Positions 53,689-63,944 of a DNA stretch of 64,000 bases are shown in pieces; the first letter of the stretch is position 1, and every line of letters begins with the position of its first letter. A program made the translations under genes and the position numbers. The stretch spans positions 7,193-71,192 of the forward strand of contig JAGCUR010000005.1 in assembly GCA_017962745.1 (NCBI GenBank). Reading direction: 5' to 3'. Below the pieces are notes generated by a model. It was not told the origin of the DNA and made no database searches. It saw nothing but the letters and a program-made list of their open reading frames with translations. This DNA comes from Bacilli bacterium (GTDB lineage Bacteria; Bacillota_I; Bacilli_A; ML615J-28; CAG-698).

Positions 53689-54207
53689 TTAAAATAATTC
53701 ACTAATCATGCTTTGTCTTTTTTGCACGCGTTTAGCTTTATATACTTTTGAACATAAAAACTCTTTTAAAGCTATCCATGTATCCGCATTACATACAATT
53801 CTAGCTTCAGTTGTTTTTGGAAAACACTTAAAATTAATCGGCCACATATGAGATAATATTAAGTTTGCTACTTTATCACTAATATCAAAATCTCTTTTAG
53901 CATTGCTTACCGCAATCGATGGATGCCTTGATCCATGATGTTTAAGCAAGCTTCTATCGCTTCGCCAATCATACAAATAATAATCGTGTAAAATGGAAGC
54001 AATCAAGATCGACTCTAAATCTAATTCTTTCTTTTTCTTTAGCGCTCTTTTAATTGCTAATTTGGCAACTAAAAATGAGTGAATATAACAATTAGATCCG
54101 CGATGCATACTAACATCCTTCATCCTATCAATTAACGGATTATTTAAATATGAATAATAAATTGTTTCTAGTTTTTCTTTTTCTTCTAAACTTAAACTTC
54201 TTTTCAT
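53689..54207 (-). CDS. HD-domain phosphohydrolase
   Basis: HSFLVA..ILHDYYLYDW..H..D pattern consistent with an HD metal-dependent phosphohydrolase; 172 aa. Confidence 0.55.
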   Translation of the reverse strand: MKRSLSLEEKEKLETIYYSYLNNPLIDRMKDVSMHRGSNCYIHSFLVAKLAIKRALKKKKELDLESILIASILHDYYLYDWRSDRSLLKHHGSRHPSIAVSNAKRDFDISDKVANLILSHMWPINFKCFPKTTEARIVCNADTWIALKEFLCSKVYKAKRVQKRQSMISELF

Positions 54208-54278
54208 ATATTGGCCTTTTACTCTACTTTAAATTATAACATAAAAAAGACTAGAAAAATCTAGTCTTCGCAAATTAA

Positions 54279-56309
54279 TTAGTTAATTTTTTTGGTTAAT
54301 GTTAAGATGTTTTTATTATCTAGATATTGATAACTTACTTCATCCATATTTTTCTTAACTAAGAATATGCCTAGTCCACCAATTTGACGATCTTCAGCTG
54401 ATAAAGTATTATCGGGATCAGCTTTCGCAAGCGGGTCAAATGGCATACCACTATCAATAAATTGTAAGGTTACAACTCCATCATTAAATCCTAATTTGAT
54501 TTCACAATCGCCTTCTCCTTCACCATATGCATAATTAGCGATATTAACAAACACCTCTTCAATCGATAAATCAATTTGGGTTTGGGCTTTCATTTGGCAA
54601 TCGTGCTTTTCTAAGAATTCATCGATAAATTCCATTACTTGATAAAGGTTTTCATTCTTCGCCTTTACAACTAGTTTATTTTCTTCTTTTTTGTTTAGTT
54701 CAAAGCATACCATAGTTAAATCATCAAACTGAGGCGCTTCTCCTACGAACTTGTCTACATCTGAATGAATGAAATCTAAGATTTCTTTTGGGGAAGATGC
54801 TTTACATTCATTTAAAGCATTTACCATCCTATTCATACCATATAACTCTTTATCCGTATTAGTAGCTTCAGTAACTCCATCAGTATATAAAAATAGTTTA
54901 TCGCCCGGATGTAAATCAATCTCATAATCGTTATATTTAGCATTAGCGTTAGCACCGATTACTAAGCCATGCTTATTTTTGAATAATTCAAATGATCCCC
55001 CATCGTGATATATTGCTGGGTCATCATGACCAGCATTACTTGCTACAATCTTGCCTGTAGATAATTGCACAATACCCAGCCATACAGTTACAAACATATC
55101 AGCTTCATTGTGCTTACAAATTCCTTCATTAACAAATGTCAATATTTCTCCTGGTGTTCCACCCATTCGCGTTCTGTCGCTTATTAGGATGTTAGTTACC
55201 ATCATAAACAAAGCAGCCGGAATTCCTTTTCCACTTACATCCGCAATGACGATTGCTAAATGATCATCATCAATTAAGAAGAAATTATAGAAGTCCCCAC
55301 CTACAACTTTCGCTGGGGTCATACTAGCATAAATACCAAAGTCAGATCGTTCTGGAAAGGCTGGGAAATTATTAGGAATTGAGTTTTCTTGAATAGTTGA
55401 TGCTATTGATAACTCAGCTCCAATTTTTTCTTTTTCTTTAGTAGCAATAGTTAAGTTATTCATATAACTTAACATATCTTCTTCCATCTTATCGACCGAT
55501 TTAGCTAAATTCGATATTTCTTGAATCCTACTAATATTACCTAACTTCTCGCCTTGCGAACTCTCTTTCGCAAATCTTGTAGCTTCATTTGCCACTTTAC
55601 GCATTGGTTGAACAAACTGTTTCTTTAAATAAGCTATCGTAATTAGAGCTGTAAGGATAGCAACTAATATAATTGAAAGAGCGATATTTACTAAATATGG
55701 CTTTCTAGCTGCTTTCAATTCACCAATCGGCCTTTGAATGCACATTAATGCTACTACTTTACCATTAGATGCTTTCATCGGCACTAAAATGGTAATGTGC
55801 GGATTTTGGCCATTCAAATTTCTGGTCCTAAAAACAGTTTCATATTCTTCTTCGCCTTTATACAAAGTTTCATATTTTTTTTTATATTCATCATTGGTTG
55901 TGTCGCGCTTATGACCTAATTCCCATGGCGTATAATTAGTATTATCGACACCATTATTAACCGCATTAAAGATGGATACAAATCTTCCATAATCGCTTTC
56001 ATCTACTTTAATAATATAGACAAGCGATAAATTCATTTTATCGCAATATGCATCTAGATAAGCTTTCGTTTGATTATATTCTTCATCAATCCCATTTTCT
56101 AAATAATTATCTAGATGATCTATATTTACTAATGAACAGGCAGTTGCCGCCATATGGTAAGATGTTGTAGAGTATTCTTTTTTAAAAGCAGTCGTAAAAC
56201 TCATCAATCCAATTACGCTAACAACTAAACTAAAGAATACAAGCAATACCAATATGAAGCTAATAATACGAAAAGATAAAGATGAAAATATTTTTTTCAG
56301 TTTATTCAT
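54279..56309 (-). CDS. Membrane sensor PP2C (SpoIIE/RsbU-type) phosphatase fused to a C-terminal RsbW/SpoIIAB-type GHKL serine kinase domain
   Basis: TM1, extracytoplasmic domain of about 170 aa, TM2, HAMP-like linker; PP2C motifs (GGDFYNFFLIDDDHLAIVIADVSGKGIPAALFM, FDDLTMV); C-terminal N-box EEVFVNIANYAY and G-boxes IDSGMPFDP, GGLGIFLV. Confidence 0.75.
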   Translation of the reverse strand: MNKLKKIFSSLSFRIISFILVLLVFFSLVVSVIGLMSFTTAFKKEYSTTSYHMAATACSLVNIDHLDNYLENGIDEEYNQTKAYLDAYCDKMNLSLVYIIKVDESDYGRFVSIFNAVNNGVDNTNYTPWELGHKRDTTNDEYKKKYETLYKGEEEYETVFRTRNLNGQNPHITILVPMKASNGKVVALMCIQRPIGELKAARKPYLVNIALSIILVAILTALITIAYLKKQFVQPMRKVANEATRFAKESSQGEKLGNISRIQEISNLAKSVDKMEEDMLSYMNNLTIATKEKEKIGAELSIASTIQENSIPNNFPAFPERSDFGIYASMTPAKVVGGDFYNFFLIDDDHLAIVIADVSGKGIPAALFMMVTNILISDRTRMGGTPGEILTFVNEGICKHNEADMFVTVWLGIVQLSTGKIVASNAGHDDPAIYHDGGSFELFKNKHGLVIGANANAKYNDYEIDLHPGDKLFLYTDGVTEATNTDKELYGMNRMVNALNECKASSPKEILDFIHSDVDKFVGEAPQFDDLTMVCFELNKKEENKLVVKAKNENLYQVMEFIDEFLEKHDCQMKAQTQIDLSIEEVFVNIANYAYGEGEGDCEIKLGFNDGVVTLQFIDSGMPFDPLAKADPDNTLSAEDRQIGGLGIFLVKKNMDEVSYQYLDNKNILTLTKKIN

Positions 56310-56313
56310 ATTA

Positions 56314-56610
56314 TTACCTAATTGTTAAGAAGTCCGTAAATCCTGTTATTTCAAATACTTCCATTACATCTTCTTGCACGTTTTCAATAACCATTTCTCC
56401 TCGACCACTCATTAATTTTTGGGCTTTCAAAAATATTCTAAGTCCGGCTGAAGATGTATAATCCATTTCTTTTAAATCAAATACTAAAGATGTAACACCT
56501 TCTAAGTTTTCCATAAGGAATGATTCAAGTTCTGGTGCAGTAACTGTATCTAGTCTGCCATTTAAACAAATAGTTAGTTTTTCTCCTTCACGTGTATGGC
56601 TAATATTCAT
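56314..56610 (-). CDS. STAS-domain anti-sigma-factor antagonist (SpoIIAA/RsbV-like)
   Basis: 98 aa; conserved phosphorylatable-serine motif DYTSSAGLRIFL; 4 nt upstream of the PP2C-kinase gene. Confidence 0.8.
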   Translation of the reverse strand: MNISHTREGEKLTICLNGRLDTVTAPELESFLMENLEGVTSLVFDLKEMDYTSSAGLRIFLKAQKLMSGRGEMVIENVQEDVMEVFEITGFTDFLTIR

Positions 56611-56626
56611 AATAATTCTCCTTAAA

Positions 56627-57202
56627 CTAAATTATATTTTTAATATTCTTAATGACATCATCAATTATTAACTCTGCGTTACTTCCATCAATATCTAAGC
56701 CTTCAGCTTTAATAAATAATGTATTTTTAATTTCAAAGAAATCTTTAGCAAGACTATCGACATAATTAAATGCATAATTATCTTTAGGAATAAACCCACC
56801 AGATGTAGCTACATATATTAATCTTTTTGCTTTGCATAAGCCAACTGGAATTCCTTCATCACTATATACAAAACTCATTCCATTGATACATATATTTTCT
56901 AAATATATCTTTAAGACAGATGGAAAAGATAAATCCCAATACGGAGCAGCAATGACAATCTCATCAGCCTCTTTAAACTGCTTCACATAGCGAAAATAAT
57001 CATCGCTAAAATCATTTTCTAAAAATGCCTTGTCTCTTAAGTCTAATGCGTCTTTATCGAGTGGTTTGATATCTTCTTTATATAAATCTACTTCTGCTAT
57101 CCTGCCATCTAGATTATTAAGCACTTCTTTTGCTAACTTAAGTGTTCTAGAATTAGAGCGCAAGCAAGCATTGATGAATAATATGTTTTTCATTAGAACC
57201 AA
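56627..57202 (-). CDS. FMN-dependent NAD(P)H:quinone oxidoreductase / azoreductase-like flavoprotein
   Basis: ADEIVIAAPYWDLSFPSVLKIYLENI parallels AzoR [26 protein letters not shown]; the likely true start is the internal MKNILFINA. Confidence 0.65.
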   Translation of the reverse strand: MVLMKNILFINACLRSNSRTLKLAKEVLNNLDGRIAEVDLYKEDIKPLDKDALDLRDKAFLENDFSDDYFRYVKQFKEADEIVIAAPYWDLSFPSVLKIYLENICINGMSFVYSDEGIPVGLCKAKRLIYVATSGGFIPKDNYAFNYVDSLAKDFFEIKNTLFIKAEGLDIDGSNAELIIDDVIKNIKNII

Positions 57203-58332
57203 AGTGAATCAAGTGTCTTTACATTTTCATTTATGAAGTTTAAGCAATAAGCACTTACTTGACTTGCATATGGATCATCTAGACCAAATCTACGTACCAT
57301 CCAACGGAAGATATGCAAGTAACTGATAAAGGCTGCTTTTCTTTCCACTTCTTTAATGAAATCTTCATCACGACCTTCAAAATAATATTTTAAAGTATAT
57401 TTCCATAAGTCTTGGCATTGATTTCTTTCAATTCCTAAGAAAGCGGCACTATTGTTTTTATCAATGCAAGAATAACCTAAGTATGCTCCATAAATTTCTG
57501 AGAATTCAAAGATTGGATGACCTAAAGCTAGGGTATCCATATCGATAAGTAAATTCTCATTGTTTTGTTTCATAATGTTTTTAATATGATAATCACCATG
57601 AAGCATATTATTTGTATTAGGTACATCATTAACTAATTTCATTACTTTACCGTAAACTTCAGCGCTTAAGTAAGGTTTTGCAAATTCAGCCCACTTTAAA
57701 ACTTCTTCTTTTTTGTTTGGAAGTTCACCTGGTTTTAAGGTAGTTGAGTGAATAATCTTTAAGATATCAACGCTTTCTTTTGCTAACTGTTCTACATTCG
57801 CGCCTTCACGGATTAACATCGCAAATGATTTCGCATTAAGTAGTTCGAAAACTGAACCATATAATTCTCCAACTTTAACTACATCGTATGGAATAGCAGT
57901 TGGGATTCCCATAACAAATGCTTTACGCGCTAGTTCTCTTTCATGTTGGATATCAGCTAGAGAATCAGGATTCTTATAAAGTTTAACTATTGTATCAGGA
58001 TCAGTACGATATACGATACCATTAGCACCTTCGCCGATTACTTCGCATCCTTCAATTGATATTTCACGATATGCTTTTGATATTTCCATCATCTCTGTAA
58101 AACCAGTCATATCAAATATTTCATAAACGTCTAGTTTACAGTTGATAATTTTCGTATCTGGATTGCTCTTTTTAATCCTTAAGATTACTCTTAAACCAGC
58201 GCTTGAAATATATTCAAGGCCTGACGCATCAAGAATAATCTCACCACTAAAACCATTAATTTCTTGGTTAAGAGCCTCTTCTACGGCGCTCGCGTTTGTC
58301 GAATCGATTCTACCTGTTAATTTTACGATCAT
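57193..58332 (-). CDS. STAS-domain protein fused to an APH/protein-kinase-like phosphotransferase domain
   Basis: N-terminal 100 aa STAS with EYISSAGLRVIL; C-terminal Gly-rich loop GEGANGIVY..VKLYK, catalytic HGDYHIKNIM and IDMDTLALG (Brenner/HGD and DFG-equivalent motifs). Confidence 0.7.
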   Translation of the reverse strand: MIVKLTGRIDSTNASAVEEALNQEINGFSGEIILDASGLEYISSAGLRVILRIKKSNPDTKIINCKLDVYEIFDMTGFTEMMEISKAYREISIEGCEVIGEGANGIVYRTDPDTIVKLYKNPDSLADIQHERELARKAFVMGIPTAIPYDVVKVGELYGSVFELLNAKSFAMLIREGANVEQLAKESVDILKIIHSTTLKPGELPNKKEEVLKWAEFAKPYLSAEVYGKVMKLVNDVPNTNNMLHGDYHIKNIMKQNNENLLIDMDTLALGHPIFEFSEIYGAYLGYSCIDKNNSAAFLGIERNQCQDLWKYTLKYYFEGRDEDFIKEVERKAAFISYLHIFRWMVRRFGLDDPYASQVSAYCLNFINENVKTLDSLWF

Positions 58333-58458: not shown

Positions 58459-59589
58459 TTAATTCATTAGTTTATCTTTTAATGTGTTAATTTGTAATTC
58501 GCTCATTCCGGCTTCAGTTAAAAATGCCTCAGCATATACTGATAAATCACAAGTTTTATAATCTACACTATTATCATTTACCATGCTTTTTATCATTGGG
58601 TTAAGTAAACTATCAATGATTACGCTATATTTATCTGAATCTTCCCCAATACGATAATAATTATAATATGTAATCATATAGTCTTTTACTATTTCATCAT
58701 AGCCTGCTCCAACTAATGCTTCTAGTAACATACAAACAAAGCCAGTTCGATCTTTTCCTTCAGTGCAGTGTACAAGATATGGCCCATCGTGTTTAATCAT
58801 TTCTTTTAAACCGCCCGCAACTTTTTCTTTAAAGTCTTGAGAGCCATAATTCATATTTAGACCGATTGGATAAACAGCATCACTTTCATATAATGCTAAG
58901 AAATATGGGCAGTTAAATGAAGGATTATTGATGTAACCACTAACTTTTGCATCAGTATCTGCCAAATCTAAAATAAATGATACTCCTGCTTCTCTAATTA
59001 GCGCATCTACAAATGTAGCTCTATTATGTTGGTTATCGCAAGGTGAAGCTGAACGATATAACGTATTAGCTTTTAAACCCGTTACATTAGAGGCTCTAAA
59101 GTTAGCAAACATCTCATCACTATCATATCTTTCTCTTTCATCAAGATATTGAAGATTACGAACATTTTGAATTGGCAGATATTTGCCTTTTTCATTTATG
59201 GTAATAGTTGCTGTATCTTCTTCAGACAAATTTGCCACAAAGAATAAATCATCACCATTATTAATTGCTACTTTAATAAAGTCATAGCCAGGGTATGCTA
59301 CAAGCAATGGTTCGCCATTATTTGTATAATAACCATTATAATATGGGATATCCTCTAGTATATAGCCATTAGAAAACTTAACAGTTACCGAATCACCATA
59401 CTCAAAACCTAGTTCGTTAAATTCTTCGATTGTTTTAGTAACATATACACCACCAAATTCTAATTCGTGAATTATTGGTTGTTTTTTAAGGGCTACTTTA
59501 CCACTGCAGGCAAATATTGGTAAAACTAGTATTATGCATAAGATACTAAATATTAAAATATAAGATAAAACATTTTTGATTTTCTTCAT
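58459..59589 (-). CDS. Secreted/lipoprotein tyrosine-phosphatase-like protein (CX5R P-loop)
   Basis: Signal peptide with lipobox-like LPIFACSG; C-terminal HCTEGKDRTG PTP active-site loop; 376 aa. Confidence 0.65.
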   Translation of the reverse strand: MKKIKNVLSYILIFSILCIILVLPIFACSGKVALKKQPIIHELEFGGVYVTKTIEEFNELGFEYGDSVTVKFSNGYILEDIPYYNGYYTNNGEPLLVAYPGYDFIKVAINNGDDLFFVANLSEEDTATITINEKGKYLPIQNVRNLQYLDERERYDSDEMFANFRASNVTGLKANTLYRSASPCDNQHNRATFVDALIREAGVSFILDLADTDAKVSGYINNPSFNCPYFLALYESDAVYPIGLNMNYGSQDFKEKVAGGLKEMIKHDGPYLVHCTEGKDRTGFVCMLLEALVGAGYDEIVKDYMITYYNYYRIGEDSDKYSVIIDSLLNPMIKSMVNDNSVDYKTCDLSVYAEAFLTEAGMSELQINTLKDKLMN

Positions 59590-61715: not shown

Positions 61716-61733
61716 TAACTAGTCTTCTTTTTT
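61701..61733. terminator. Bidirectional terminator palindrome shared by convergent glgB and the PP2C sensor gene; both stop codons lie inside the stem
   Basis: aaaaaagaagactagt-a-actagtcttctttttt; glgB TAG at 61713-61715, minus-strand TAG at 61719-61721. Confidence 0.7.
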
Positions 61734-63944
61734 GTTTCCACGATATTCTACACAAAGCATTGTTAAATCGTCGAATTGTTCCGCATCCTTAACAAATTCA
61801 TTTACTTCTTTGCGGACAGTTTCTAATATTTCTTTTGGAGATGCATTGCCTGCTTTATTTAAAGCAACAACCATTCTATCCATTCCAAATAATTCTTTTT
61901 CACTGTTAGTAGCTTCTGGAACACCATCTGTATAAATGAATAACCTACTGCCAGGTTCTAGCATAATATCATATTCTTTATATTTAGCACCATCAATTCC
62001 ACCGATAACAAATCCATGTTTATCTTTGAATATTTCAAAATTACCATTTGGTTGTTTAACAACTGGATATTCGTGACCGGCATTAGCAGCAGTTAACTTA
62101 CCAGTCGATATTTCTAAAATACCCAACCATACGGTAACAAACATTTCTTCGCGGTTATTAGAACAAATTGCTAAGTTAGTATCGGTAAGAATTTGAGCTG
62201 GTGATTTACCCATTTGGGCATTATTAGCTAAGATGATCATTGATGCCATCATGAATAGTGCAGCAGGTACTCCTTTACCACTTACATCAGCGATAAAGAT
62301 ACATAAGTGATCATCATCTACTAAGAAGAAGTCGTAGAAGTCGCCACCTACTTCTTTGGCTGGGTCCATTGATGCATAAACATCAATTTCTGGACGTTCT
62401 GGGAAGGCTGGATAAATGTTAGGTAACATATCAGCTTGAATACGAGTAGCAAGTGATAATTCAGCTCCGATTCTTTCTTTTTCGGCTGATATTCTAGCAA
62501 CCTCAGATATATACTTAACAGTCTTTTCTGATAACATTGCAAATGATTCCGCAAGTAACTCAATCTCATCATGAGTACGATATTCATCTTCCATAACGAA
62601 TTGCAAATTATCGCCATCTAGTGATTGGATACGTTTTGTAATTGTTTCTAATGGTTTTACAATACGCTTAGATAAAATTAGTGAAGCCGTAATGGCTAAA
62701 ATTACAATGATTGCAAGTAACACAATGATTGTCATCTTAGTTTGCGAAATACCTTTATTGTATGAGATAGTAGCATCATCTTTAATAGTGTCTAATTGGT
62801 CGATCATCATAGTAGTTGGCAGGTCAGCAAGTGACTTTGGTACAACACTTATAATTGCCCAGCCAACGCTAGCTATTGGGGCACCAGCTACATAATTTAA
62901 GCCATCAGATAATTCGATTAAACGCAGATTAGTACTTTCACTCATTGCATCGTTAATAAATGCAGCGAGTTGTGTGTTAGAAGATTGTCTTAAGTCTTCT
63001 GCTTCTTCTGCAGGTACCACTCTAAATTCACCAGTTGTTTGCGGTGAGAATAAGACATGACCGTTTTGATTAACGATACATACGAAGCTACCACTTCGAG
63101 CTGTAGCATTAACTGCTGCTGATACATCATTTAAGAATAAGTCGGCCCCAATTACAGCTACTAATTCTTCTCCTTGATAAACAGGTAGTGAGCACATAAT
63201 ACTAATTTCATTGGTGAATAAGTCAGTCGTAACATCAGTGAAATGTATTTTTCTAGATTGAACTGCTCCTGTATACCATAATCGTTCACGAATAGGAATT
63301 GATAATAAGTTGCCATTATCATCAAACTTTGATTTTGAATGATCATCAACTAGTAGCATTACACCATCAGGTAATGCACAATAGCAAGAATCAACTTTGG
63401 CATCCGAATAAACTGCCATCATTAATTCTGATAAGTTACCGATAAGTCCTAACTTAGCGCTAATCGTAGGATCATCTAAATCAACGCCTTCTTCTTTTAG
63501 AACTTGCATGGTAATCTCGCCATCTTTGTTAATATCTGGTAGTTCCACATCTCTTGCTGGATAATCACCAGGATTAGCAAATAGCTTACTAGTATAATCA
63601 GCAATTATATTAACAATTTTAATCGTATCATCGAATAAATCTTCCGCGATATATGCTTCCATTTGAATACTTTGAAGCATATTAGAATCTAATAATGCTG
63701 TCATAGTTTGTTCAGAAATGGATGTAATTGAATCATTTTGTGCTTCATTTGTATTACGTACTAGATTAGTCAATCTACCACTTTGATAAAATACAACTGC
63801 CGCAAAAGCAGCCATCATCAAAATAATCGTAATAAGCACTAAATTAAATATCTTCTGTTGGATACCACCGATTGTAATGTTTTTAAATTTCTTCATATAC
63901 TCATACCATTCCCATTCTAAATCACTACCCGTAAGGGTTATCAT
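61719..63944 (-). CDS. Membrane sensor PP2C (RsbU/SpoIIE-type) phosphatase with large extracytoplasmic ligand-binding domain and HAMP linker
   Basis: TM1, extracytoplasmic domain of about 350 aa, TM2, HAMP; PP2C motifs GGDFYDFFLVDDDHLCIFIADVSGKGVPAALFM and FDDLTMLCVEY; no kinase domain; 741 aa. Confidence 0.75.
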   Translation of the reverse strand: MITLTGSDLEWEWYEYMKKFKNITIGGIQQKIFNLVLITIILMMAAFAAVVFYQSGRLTNLVRNTNEAQNDSITSISEQTMTALLDSNMLQSIQMEAYIAEDLFDDTIKIVNIIADYTSKLFANPGDYPARDVELPDINKDGEITMQVLKEEGVDLDDPTISAKLGLIGNLSELMMAVYSDAKVDSCYCALPDGVMLLVDDHSKSKFDDNGNLLSIPIRERLWYTGAVQSRKIHFTDVTTDLFTNEISIMCSLPVYQGEELVAVIGADLFLNDVSAAVNATARSGSFVCIVNQNGHVLFSPQTTGEFRVVPAEEAEDLRQSSNTQLAAFINDAMSESTNLRLIELSDGLNYVAGAPIASVGWAIISVVPKSLADLPTTMMIDQLDTIKDDATISYNKGISQTKMTIIVLLAIIVILAITASLILSKRIVKPLETITKRIQSLDGDNLQFVMEDEYRTHDEIELLAESFAMLSEKTVKYISEVARISAEKERIGAELSLATRIQADMLPNIYPAFPERPEIDVYASMDPAKEVGGDFYDFFLVDDDHLCIFIADVSGKGVPAALFMMASMIILANNAQMGKSPAQILTDTNLAICSNNREEMFVTVWLGILEISTGKLTAANAGHEYPVVKQPNGNFEIFKDKHGFVIGGIDGAKYKEYDIMLEPGSRLFIYTDGVPEATNSEKELFGMDRMVVALNKAGNASPKEILETVRKEVNEFVKDAEQFDDLTMLCVEYRGNKKED

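Follow-up and report, generated by a model that had tools for sequence, protein, structure and literature searches.

Proteins in which one polypeptide carries both the kinase and the phosphatase of a serine-based partner switch are an established concept, represented by HsbR, CrsR and SypE; the two domains are likewise fused in Rv1364c and OsaC. HsbR of Pseudomonas aeruginosa and CrsR of Shewanella oneidensis are REC-PP2C-kinase/anti-sigma proteins that act on an adjacent STAS protein, HsbA and CrsA respectively (PMC6482189). Rv1364c of Mycobacterium tuberculosis is arranged as PAS-PP2C-kinase-STAS, and OsaC is likewise a multidomain protein (PMC12143880). In Vibrio fischeri, the phosphorylation of S56, a conserved serine of the single-domain STAS protein SypA, is controlled by SypE, which is both a serine kinase and a phosphatase (PMC8256260, PMC3610818). 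The partner switch formed by SiaA, SiaB and SiaC of P. aeruginosa leads to an enzyme, the diguanylate cyclase SiaD, and not to a sigma factor (PMC7647112). The present analysis concerns a 64,000-nucleotide stretch of DNA from a Bacilli bacterium (contig JAGCUR010000005.1, positions 7,193 to 71,192; hereafter the window), in which one minus-strand gene encodes a 676-residue membrane protein combining a PP2C phosphatase domain with an RsbW/SpoIIAB-type kinase domain, immediately downstream of a gene for a 98-residue STAS protein. The product of this gene is probably (about 0.7) a transmembrane bifunctional partner-switching regulator. Its parts, together with the presumed substrate gene, are as follows (all on the minus strand).

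54279-56309, minus strand: gene for the 676-residue sCache-like / HAMP-like / PP2C / GHKL-kinase membrane protein (single open reading frame; Pfam SpoIIE and HATPase_c_2)
56199-56270, minus strand: first transmembrane segment, residues ~14-37 (Kyte-Doolittle peak 3.17; N-terminal charge +3; within helix 11-59)
55695-56198, minus strand: single Cache/PDC-like extracytoplasmic sensor domain, residues 38-205 (AlphaFold2 model and Foldseek)
55626-55694, minus strand: second transmembrane segment, residues ~206-228 (Kyte-Doolittle peak 2.65, then KKQ..R..K; within helix 196-249)
55461-55625, minus strand: HAMP-like helix-connector-helix, residues 229-283 (AlphaFold2 shape, conserved residues, weak profile matches)
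55380-55460, minus strand: helical linker from the HAMP-like region to the phosphatase, residues 284-310 (continuous helix 263-310 in AlphaFold2)
54690-55352, minus strand: PP2C/SpoIIE-family phosphatase domain, residues ~320-540 (Pfam PF07228; HMMER; Foldseek)
54282-54677, minus strand: RsbW/SpoIIAB-type GHKL serine kinase domain, residues 545-676 (Pfam PF13581; HMMER)
56314-56610, minus strand: gene for the 98-residue single-domain STAS protein, presumed substrate (Pfam STAS; TIGR00377)

A preliminary description of this DNA, made from the sequence alone, had placed both opposing activities in one uninterrupted open reading frame of 676 residues beginning 4 nucleotides after the end of the STAS gene. 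Both statements hold. The list of open reading frames and the junction sequence reveal no internal stop in 54279-56309, the junction itself reads ...AGG TAA taat ATG..., and a strong Shine-Dalgarno sequence, AAGGAG, lies ahead of the STAS gene. GenBank lists the same protein (100% identity) as 'MAG: SpoIIE family protein phosphatase [Bacilli bacterium]', and the identical 676-residue sequence occurs on three independent contigs from different samples.

The phosphatase domain is complete, as had been proposed. Pfam SpoIIE (PF07228) covers residues 347-538 over positions 1-191 of the 192 in the profile (E 3.8e-50, 171 bits against a cutoff of 25), and the PP2C motifs GGD339FY, D357VSGKG, AGH428, TD477G and FD529D530 do not vary among 30 homologs (54-84% identity), the set over which all motif invariance was scored. 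The metal-binding aspartates D339, D357, D477 and D529/D530 are all present, and in HMMER alignments with SiaA (6k4e), RssB and Rv1364c the elements GGDFY, D-x-x-G-x-G, TDG and DD fall in register. Foldseek likewise relates the modelled PP2C domain to 6k4e (TMt 0.87), SpoIIE and RsbX. The PP2C domain of SiaA is an experimentally active phosphatase (PMC7647112).

The kinase domain, described beforehand as a complete RsbW/SpoIIAB-like unit with N, G1 and G2 boxes, is matched by Pfam HATPase_c_2 (PF13581) at residues 549-673, which takes in positions 2-127 of a 127-position profile (E 6.8e-23, 81.5 bits against a cutoff of 27.4). Its N-box (E585xxxN589), G1 box (D619xG621) and G2 box (G644GLG647), together with R641, are invariant among the homologs, and alignment with SpoIIAB (1th8 and 1til) and RsbW (6m36) puts the E-N, DxG and G-x-G elements in register. 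A search for lost catalytic residues in either domain, in these alignments with active enzymes and across the homologs, found none. For the kinase domain taken alone, the best sequence match in the PDB is 9qih (SenB), a 304-residue chain with a DRGAGFDP motif (residues 604-670, E 6.7e-5).

The adjacent 98-residue protein matches Pfam STAS (PF01740, E 2.9e-13) and, above its cutoff, the anti-sigma factor antagonist model TIGR00377 (E 7.5e-19). Its S53-S54 pair lies in DYTSSAGLR, with S54 aligned to S58 of SpoIIAA and S56 of RsbV, and the serine at the acceptor position is invariant in 38 of the 38 stand-alone STAS neighbours of related loci. S54 (or S53) is thus the presumed phospho-acceptor, to judge from the alignment.

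Compared with the described systems, the 676-residue protein joins a SiaA-like membrane input to an HsbR/Rv1364c-like PP2C-kinase fusion. It shares with HsbR and CrsR the succession of PP2C and RsbW-like domains in one polypeptide, in the same order and encoded beside the STAS substrate, whereas those two proteins are soluble and receive their signal through a cytoplasmic REC domain fed by a phosphorelay. A REC domain is absent from the 676-residue protein, whose N-terminal part runs transmembrane helix, Cache-like domain, transmembrane helix and HAMP-like region, so it stands outside the HsbR/CrsR family, though by analogy it plausibly works like HsbR. The partners of HsbR and CrsR are RpoS, FlgM and HsbD, and the present system has only a candidate partner, a STAS-APH fusion protein described below. 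With Rv1364c the likeness extends to the fold: the didomain of its RsbU and RsbW parts (3ke6), which has the same PP2C-GHKL order, is the best PDB match to the model (Foldseek E 2.9e-18, 364 aligned columns over both domains), and the PP2C part is recognisably similar in sequence as well. Rv1364c is cytoplasmic, begins with a PAS domain and has STAS fused in, whereas STAS is a separate gene here. SypE and SypA resemble the present pair in directing fused, opposing activities at a conserved STAS serine and in having an output that is not a known sigma factor; SypE differs in its kinase-REC-PP2C order, its solubility and its REC input.

SiaA is the nearest relative of the membrane half, as a HAMP-PP2C phosphatase with two transmembrane segments and the best NCBIfam and PDB sequence match for residues 208-538, but in that system the kinase SiaB is a separate protein and SiaC is phosphorylated on Thr68. 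The RsbU-RsbV-RsbW and SpoIIE-SpoIIAA-SpoIIAB systems of Bacillus subtilis are built from the same three protein families around the same acceptor serine, as three separate proteins with sigma B or sigma F as output. The protein is an ortholog of none of SiaA, RsbW, SpoIIAB and SpoIIE, because its scores against the equivalog models lie far below their cutoffs: 70.9 bits against 700 for SiaA (NF038263), where only the HAMP-PP2C part aligns, 24-29 bits against 135-155 for RsbW and SpoIIAB with the kinase domain, and again far too low a score for SpoIIE. Three features set the locus apart from the known systems: a Cache-like and HAMP-like membrane module serves as its input, a sigma factor gene was not detected in the window, and a STAS-APH gene is a conserved neighbour.

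The membrane input was examined with a full-length AlphaFold2 model built on the same number of homologs (30; mean predicted local distance difference test score, pLDDT, 83.6). In order, the model gives a helix at residues 11-59, an alpha/beta domain, a helix at 196-249, a 13-residue loop and a helix at 263-310, followed by a PP2C fold at 324-538 and a GHKL fold at 545-674. Two hydrophobic segments, each flanked by Lys/Arg-rich cytoplasmic stretches, enclose 168 residues, and the helix at 196-249 comprises the second of them together with the first cytoplasmic helix. Modelled alone, the enclosed domain reaches a pLDDT of 88.6, and Foldseek relates it to the sensor domains of WalK, Tlp3, KinD, Htc10 and DctB (E ~1e-5, TM 0.45-0.56). 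A sequence-profile search of the PDB found no match for this domain, and Pfam dCache_1 stays below threshold (13 bits against a cutoff of 45, E 0.07), with homolog P0008 reaching E 5e-6. Hydrophobicity and the Cache/PDC-like fold together support the extracytoplasmic sensor domain that had been placed between two transmembrane helices. C89 and C190 of this domain are invariant in the homologs, as are many aromatic residues; judging from their conservation, the two cysteines may form a disulfide or serve in ligand or redox sensing.

The region directly after the second transmembrane segment had been called HAMP, and this is the most weakly supported of the domain labels first assigned. The helix-loop-helix shape stands: the model has a helix up to residue 249, the loop at 250-262 and a helix from 263, with P235, E242 and an R245-F-A motif invariant, and NCBIfam alignments extend over the transmembrane segment 2-HAMP regions of NarQ, MtrB and ChvG. 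The best PDB profile matches, a poly-HAMP kinase and the Af1503 HAMP, are in register but non-significant (E 0.1-0.23). The family assignment itself is tentative: Pfam HAMP (PF00672) gives no match in the 676-residue protein at E <= 10; homolog P0170 has a weak one (E 0.078). The helical linker that follows has conserved E299-L, A303 and I306-Q307 and, by analogy, matches the crossing-helix linker of RsbU-type PPM phosphatases; in those enzymes, the PPM dimer is controlled by way of such linkers from N-terminal sensor domains, of which HAMP is one (PMC12143880). The HAMP-like region and the linker helix enter the PP2C domain directly, and the kinase is attached at the far end by a short connector.

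That this DNA carries a fused PP2C-kinase gene beside a STAS gene is far beyond chance. At least 8,000 database clusters match the 676-residue protein, both Pfam domains being present in 119 of 120 among the matches listed, and one source names a homolog 'ATP-binding SpoIIE family protein phosphatase'. An exhaustive search returned 9,879 clusters at 50% identity with E <= 1e-30. These roughly 9,900 cluster representatives include kinase-less and other-sensor variants: beside full-length look-alikes of 660-690 residues that align end to end, there are forms of ~540 residues with the same sensor and PP2C and without the kinase domain, and forms of 700-870 residues in which other sensors (e.g. 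dCache_1) sit on the same HAMP-PP2C-kinase core.

Gene order was compared at 80 loci from species-representative genomes, mostly those of Clostridia living in the rumen or gut; some are from Erysipelotrichaceae, Treponema, Synergistaceae, Bacteroidales and Elusimicrobium. PP2C and kinase are fused in 32 proteins of these loci, and at 15 loci they are separate adjacent genes, some of them with the 4-nucleotide overlaps typical of translational coupling (L072, L073, L077 and L048; a split pair occurs in L009 as well) and some in reversed order, kinase before PP2C (L051 and L055). A STAS gene is present at 38 of the 47 loci with a kinase domain, compared with 4 of the 31 without one (Fisher p = 2e-9), and STAS neighbours are missing beside the ~540-residue sensor-PP2C proteins without a kinase domain. 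The fusion and fission of the genes and the co-occurrence of kinase and STAS speak well for a single functional unit made up of phosphatase, kinase and STAS protein.

Around these genes, the following further elements belong to the same stretch of the minus strand.

57193-58332, minus strand: gene for a 379-residue fusion of STAS and an APH-like (TIGR02172-type) kinase (Pfam STAS and APH; TIGR02172 E 4.8e-30)
56627-57193, minus strand: gene for a flavodoxin-like / FMN-reductase-like protein of 188 residues, between the two STAS genes (Pfam Flavodoxin_2 E 1.4e-21)
54246-54269, minus strand: terminator-like hairpin directly past the PP2C-kinase stop codon (10-bp stem, then a T-run; consensus match only)
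58442-58413, minus strand: promoter-like site upstream of the STAS-APH gene (consensus match only)

Read 5' to 3' on the minus strand, STAS-APH, flavodoxin-like, STAS and PP2C-kinase genes form a tight string that runs into the terminator-like hairpin, which is a possible operon end. Terminator-like sites are in total no more numerous than the shuffled expectation; the promoter scan likewise gives no excess over it, and the operon boundaries are therefore tentative.

In the mechanism proposed for the bifunctional regulator, the Cache/PDC-like domain would bind a ligand outside the membrane, and the signal would pass through the second transmembrane helix and the HAMP-like helix-loop-helix into the long helical linker, which would set the activity of a dimeric phosphatase of the SpoIIE/RsbU type. 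The GHKL domain would use ATP to phosphorylate S54 of the co-transcribed 98-residue STAS protein and very likely also the equivalent serine in the STAS domain of STAS-APH, and the PP2C domain would remove the phosphate again. The phosphorylation state of STAS would then report the external signal and decide which partner is bound. We infer both enzyme activities and the identity of the substrate from the conserved residues and the gene neighbourhood. Because the linker enters the PP2C domain, and because the kinase is a free-standing gene in relatives, the phosphatase would seem to be the main target of the signal, and the kinase may be active constitutively. Reciprocal switching of both activities, as in HsbR or SypE, is possible by analogy.

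Several points weigh against this reading. The preliminary description had suggested that both activities come under a single extracellular input; for the kinase, such control is conjectural. Without reciprocal control, a fusion of kinase and phosphatase would run a futile, ATP-consuming cycle, of the kind seen in vitro for SiaA, SiaB and SiaC combined (PMC7647112). The fused protein occurs without a STAS gene at six loci, 4 of the 6 on contigs shorter than 7 kb. To these are added the missing Pfam HAMP match and a departure in the G1 box, which has a proline at the position of the second glycine (DSGMPF). Finally, a phmmer search of the open reading frames of at least 60 residues in the 64-kb window, made with a single B. 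subtilis SigF query and of limited sensitivity, found no member of the sigma-70 family.

The last observation bears at the same time on an explanation we hold unlikely, in which the GHKL domain is mainly a binding module: a tethered anti-sigma factor would hold a sigma factor or other partner encoded elsewhere, STAS would release that partner, and kinase activity would serve only as the reset. The domain does fall within the RsbW/SpoIIAB family, and the founding members of that family are anti-sigma factors; the D3 domains of CrsR and HsbR bind RpoS (PMC6482189); moreover, fusions of MatE with HATPase_c_2 beside homologous PP2C genes suggest a STAS-docking role for this domain on other proteins. 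The search of the window nevertheless speaks against a sigma partner, as does the lack of any sigma Pfam domain in the surrounding 6-10 kb of nine related loci that were annotated; what is conserved nearby are STAS proteins and a STAS-enzyme fusion rather than sigma factors, and the invariant ATP-binding residues argue for catalysis. Distinctly less probable again is that one catalytic domain is a scaffolding pseudo-enzyme, leaving the protein as only a sensor phosphatase with a substrate-recruiting kinase domain, or only a kinase. The ~540-residue forms without kinase are common, which indicates that the phosphatase can work without a fused kinase, and the G1 box departs from the canonical DxGxG. 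Yet every known metal- or ATP-binding residue is present and invariant across the homologs, the alignment with active enzymes is in register, and the active kinase RsbW of B. subtilis, with DEGDSF at its G1 box, likewise lacks the second glycine. The idea that two neighbouring genes were joined in error, by assembly or annotation, may be dismissed; split PP2C and kinase genes do occur in related genomes, but the continuous frame, the three independent contigs and the database homologs, thousands of which have 660-690 residues and align end to end, refute it. A transmembrane bifunctional regulator, with phosphatase and kinase both active, thus remains the preferred account of the gene product.

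A conserved STAS-APH fusion is encoded in the same candidate operon, so the 98-residue protein is probably one substrate among others. This fusion carries the acceptor serine in a YISSAGLR motif that is invariant in 19 of 19 fusions from related loci, and its kinase residues K117, E131, HGD247, N252 and D264 are conserved. It is abundant and highly conserved, with 62-85% identity among the top database matches, and its gene accompanies the fused PP2C-kinase at 14 of 32 loci. Among the loci of close orthologs it is found in L001, L005, L018, L083, L084, L085, L087 and L088 and is missing from L086; in L001 it is the sole STAS gene, and in L053 (3349-4899) STAS, APH and HATPase_c_2 form one protein. 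STAS-APH is a likely second substrate and a candidate output of the system.

Other unusual fusions lie near homologous PP2C or PP2C-kinase genes, namely STAS-APH-HATPase_c_2, HD_4-STAS-APH, STAS-HAD (Hydrolase_3) and MatE transporter-HATPase_c_2 (L053:3349-4899; L018:2512-4254; L016:4203-5297; L017:1391-3172; L025:4456-6366; L049:4624-6390; L021:32-1390), which suggests enzymes and transporters, not sigma factors, as the targets that STAS and GHKL modules gate. A precedent for reading STAS-APH in this way is the STAS-enzyme fusion All4160 with its phosphatase HenR in Anabaena (bioRxiv 10.64898/2026.04.08.717354), although that system is cyanobacterial, has polysaccharide synthesis instead of an APH-like kinase as its output and relies on kinases that are separate proteins. 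The output of the present system would be presumed to be a STAS-gated APH-like kinase or another protein partner, not a sigma factor. The fuller proposal, that the module controls no sigma factor at all and relays an extracellular signal through STAS serine phosphorylation to switch a STAS-fused APH-like small-molecule or protein kinase, is put forward tentatively, with the odds somewhat against it. A literature search found no papers on STAS-APH fusions or TIGR02172, and none on the membrane HAMP-PP2C-HATPase_c_2 architecture with STAS.

The remaining neighbours are more variable. The flavodoxin-like gene was considered as a conserved component and rejected: it occupies the same position only in L005 and L055, while the other orthologous loci have a sodium:dicarboxylate symporter (SDF) gene there or nothing, and with only 2 of 80 loci it is taken as a variable insert. 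SDF genes are often found in or beside the cluster (L083, L085 and L088). In L087 (3970-4554) and L088 (3949-4515), a small HD_4 protein resembling SpoT or small alarmone hydrolases is encoded directly upstream of STAS-APH. The HD gene at 53689-54207 of the window was tried as a counterpart of the HD_4 genes and fusions that stand beside STAS-APH (L087, L088, L018), and BLASTP similarity was not significant; as it lacks HD_4 similarity and the terminator-like hairpin separates it from the operon, it was left out of the system. Just upstream of the STAS-APH gene, 58459-59589 on the minus strand encodes a 376-residue protein with a hydrophobic N-terminus and a C-terminal domain of the tyrosine phosphatase family Y_phosphatase3 (Pfam), for which phmmer found no match among the open reading frames of the 80 genome loci. 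Farther upstream, 61719-63944 on the minus strand encodes a second membrane sensor phosphatase of 741 residues, with dCache_1 and SpoIIE/PP2C and without a kinase domain. Its PP2C is closely related to that of the 676-residue protein (phmmer E 2e-100), and by analogy with RsbU and RsbP in B. subtilis it could provide a second input onto the same STAS proteins. Across the window as a whole, nearly all long open reading frames lie on the minus strand, and GC skew is negative except at ~36-38 kb and 60-62 kb, the sites of plus-strand genes; this pattern fits a single replichore in a Bacillota genome of low GC content (about 32%) whose genes are strongly biased towards one strand.

As one more example of the established class of single-polypeptide kinase/phosphatase partner switches, the 676-residue protein is of modest value, and it indicates that the class also exists with a direct transmembrane input of Cache-like and HAMP-like type. 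Anaerobes of the gut and rumen carry this membrane form in great numbers; it is routinely annotated there and apparently without experimental study. The STAS-APH gene is the more useful lead, since through it partner switching in these bacteria could prove to have an output other than transcription. If the tentative reading of its role is true, it would represent a widespread and unstudied partner-switching output in gut and rumen Firmicutes, and the fusions of STAS and GHKL modules to HD_4, HAD and MatE would point to a wider family of enzymes and transporters under STAS control. Knowing what the Cache-like domain binds could, in turn, link the system to a gut or rumen metabolite.

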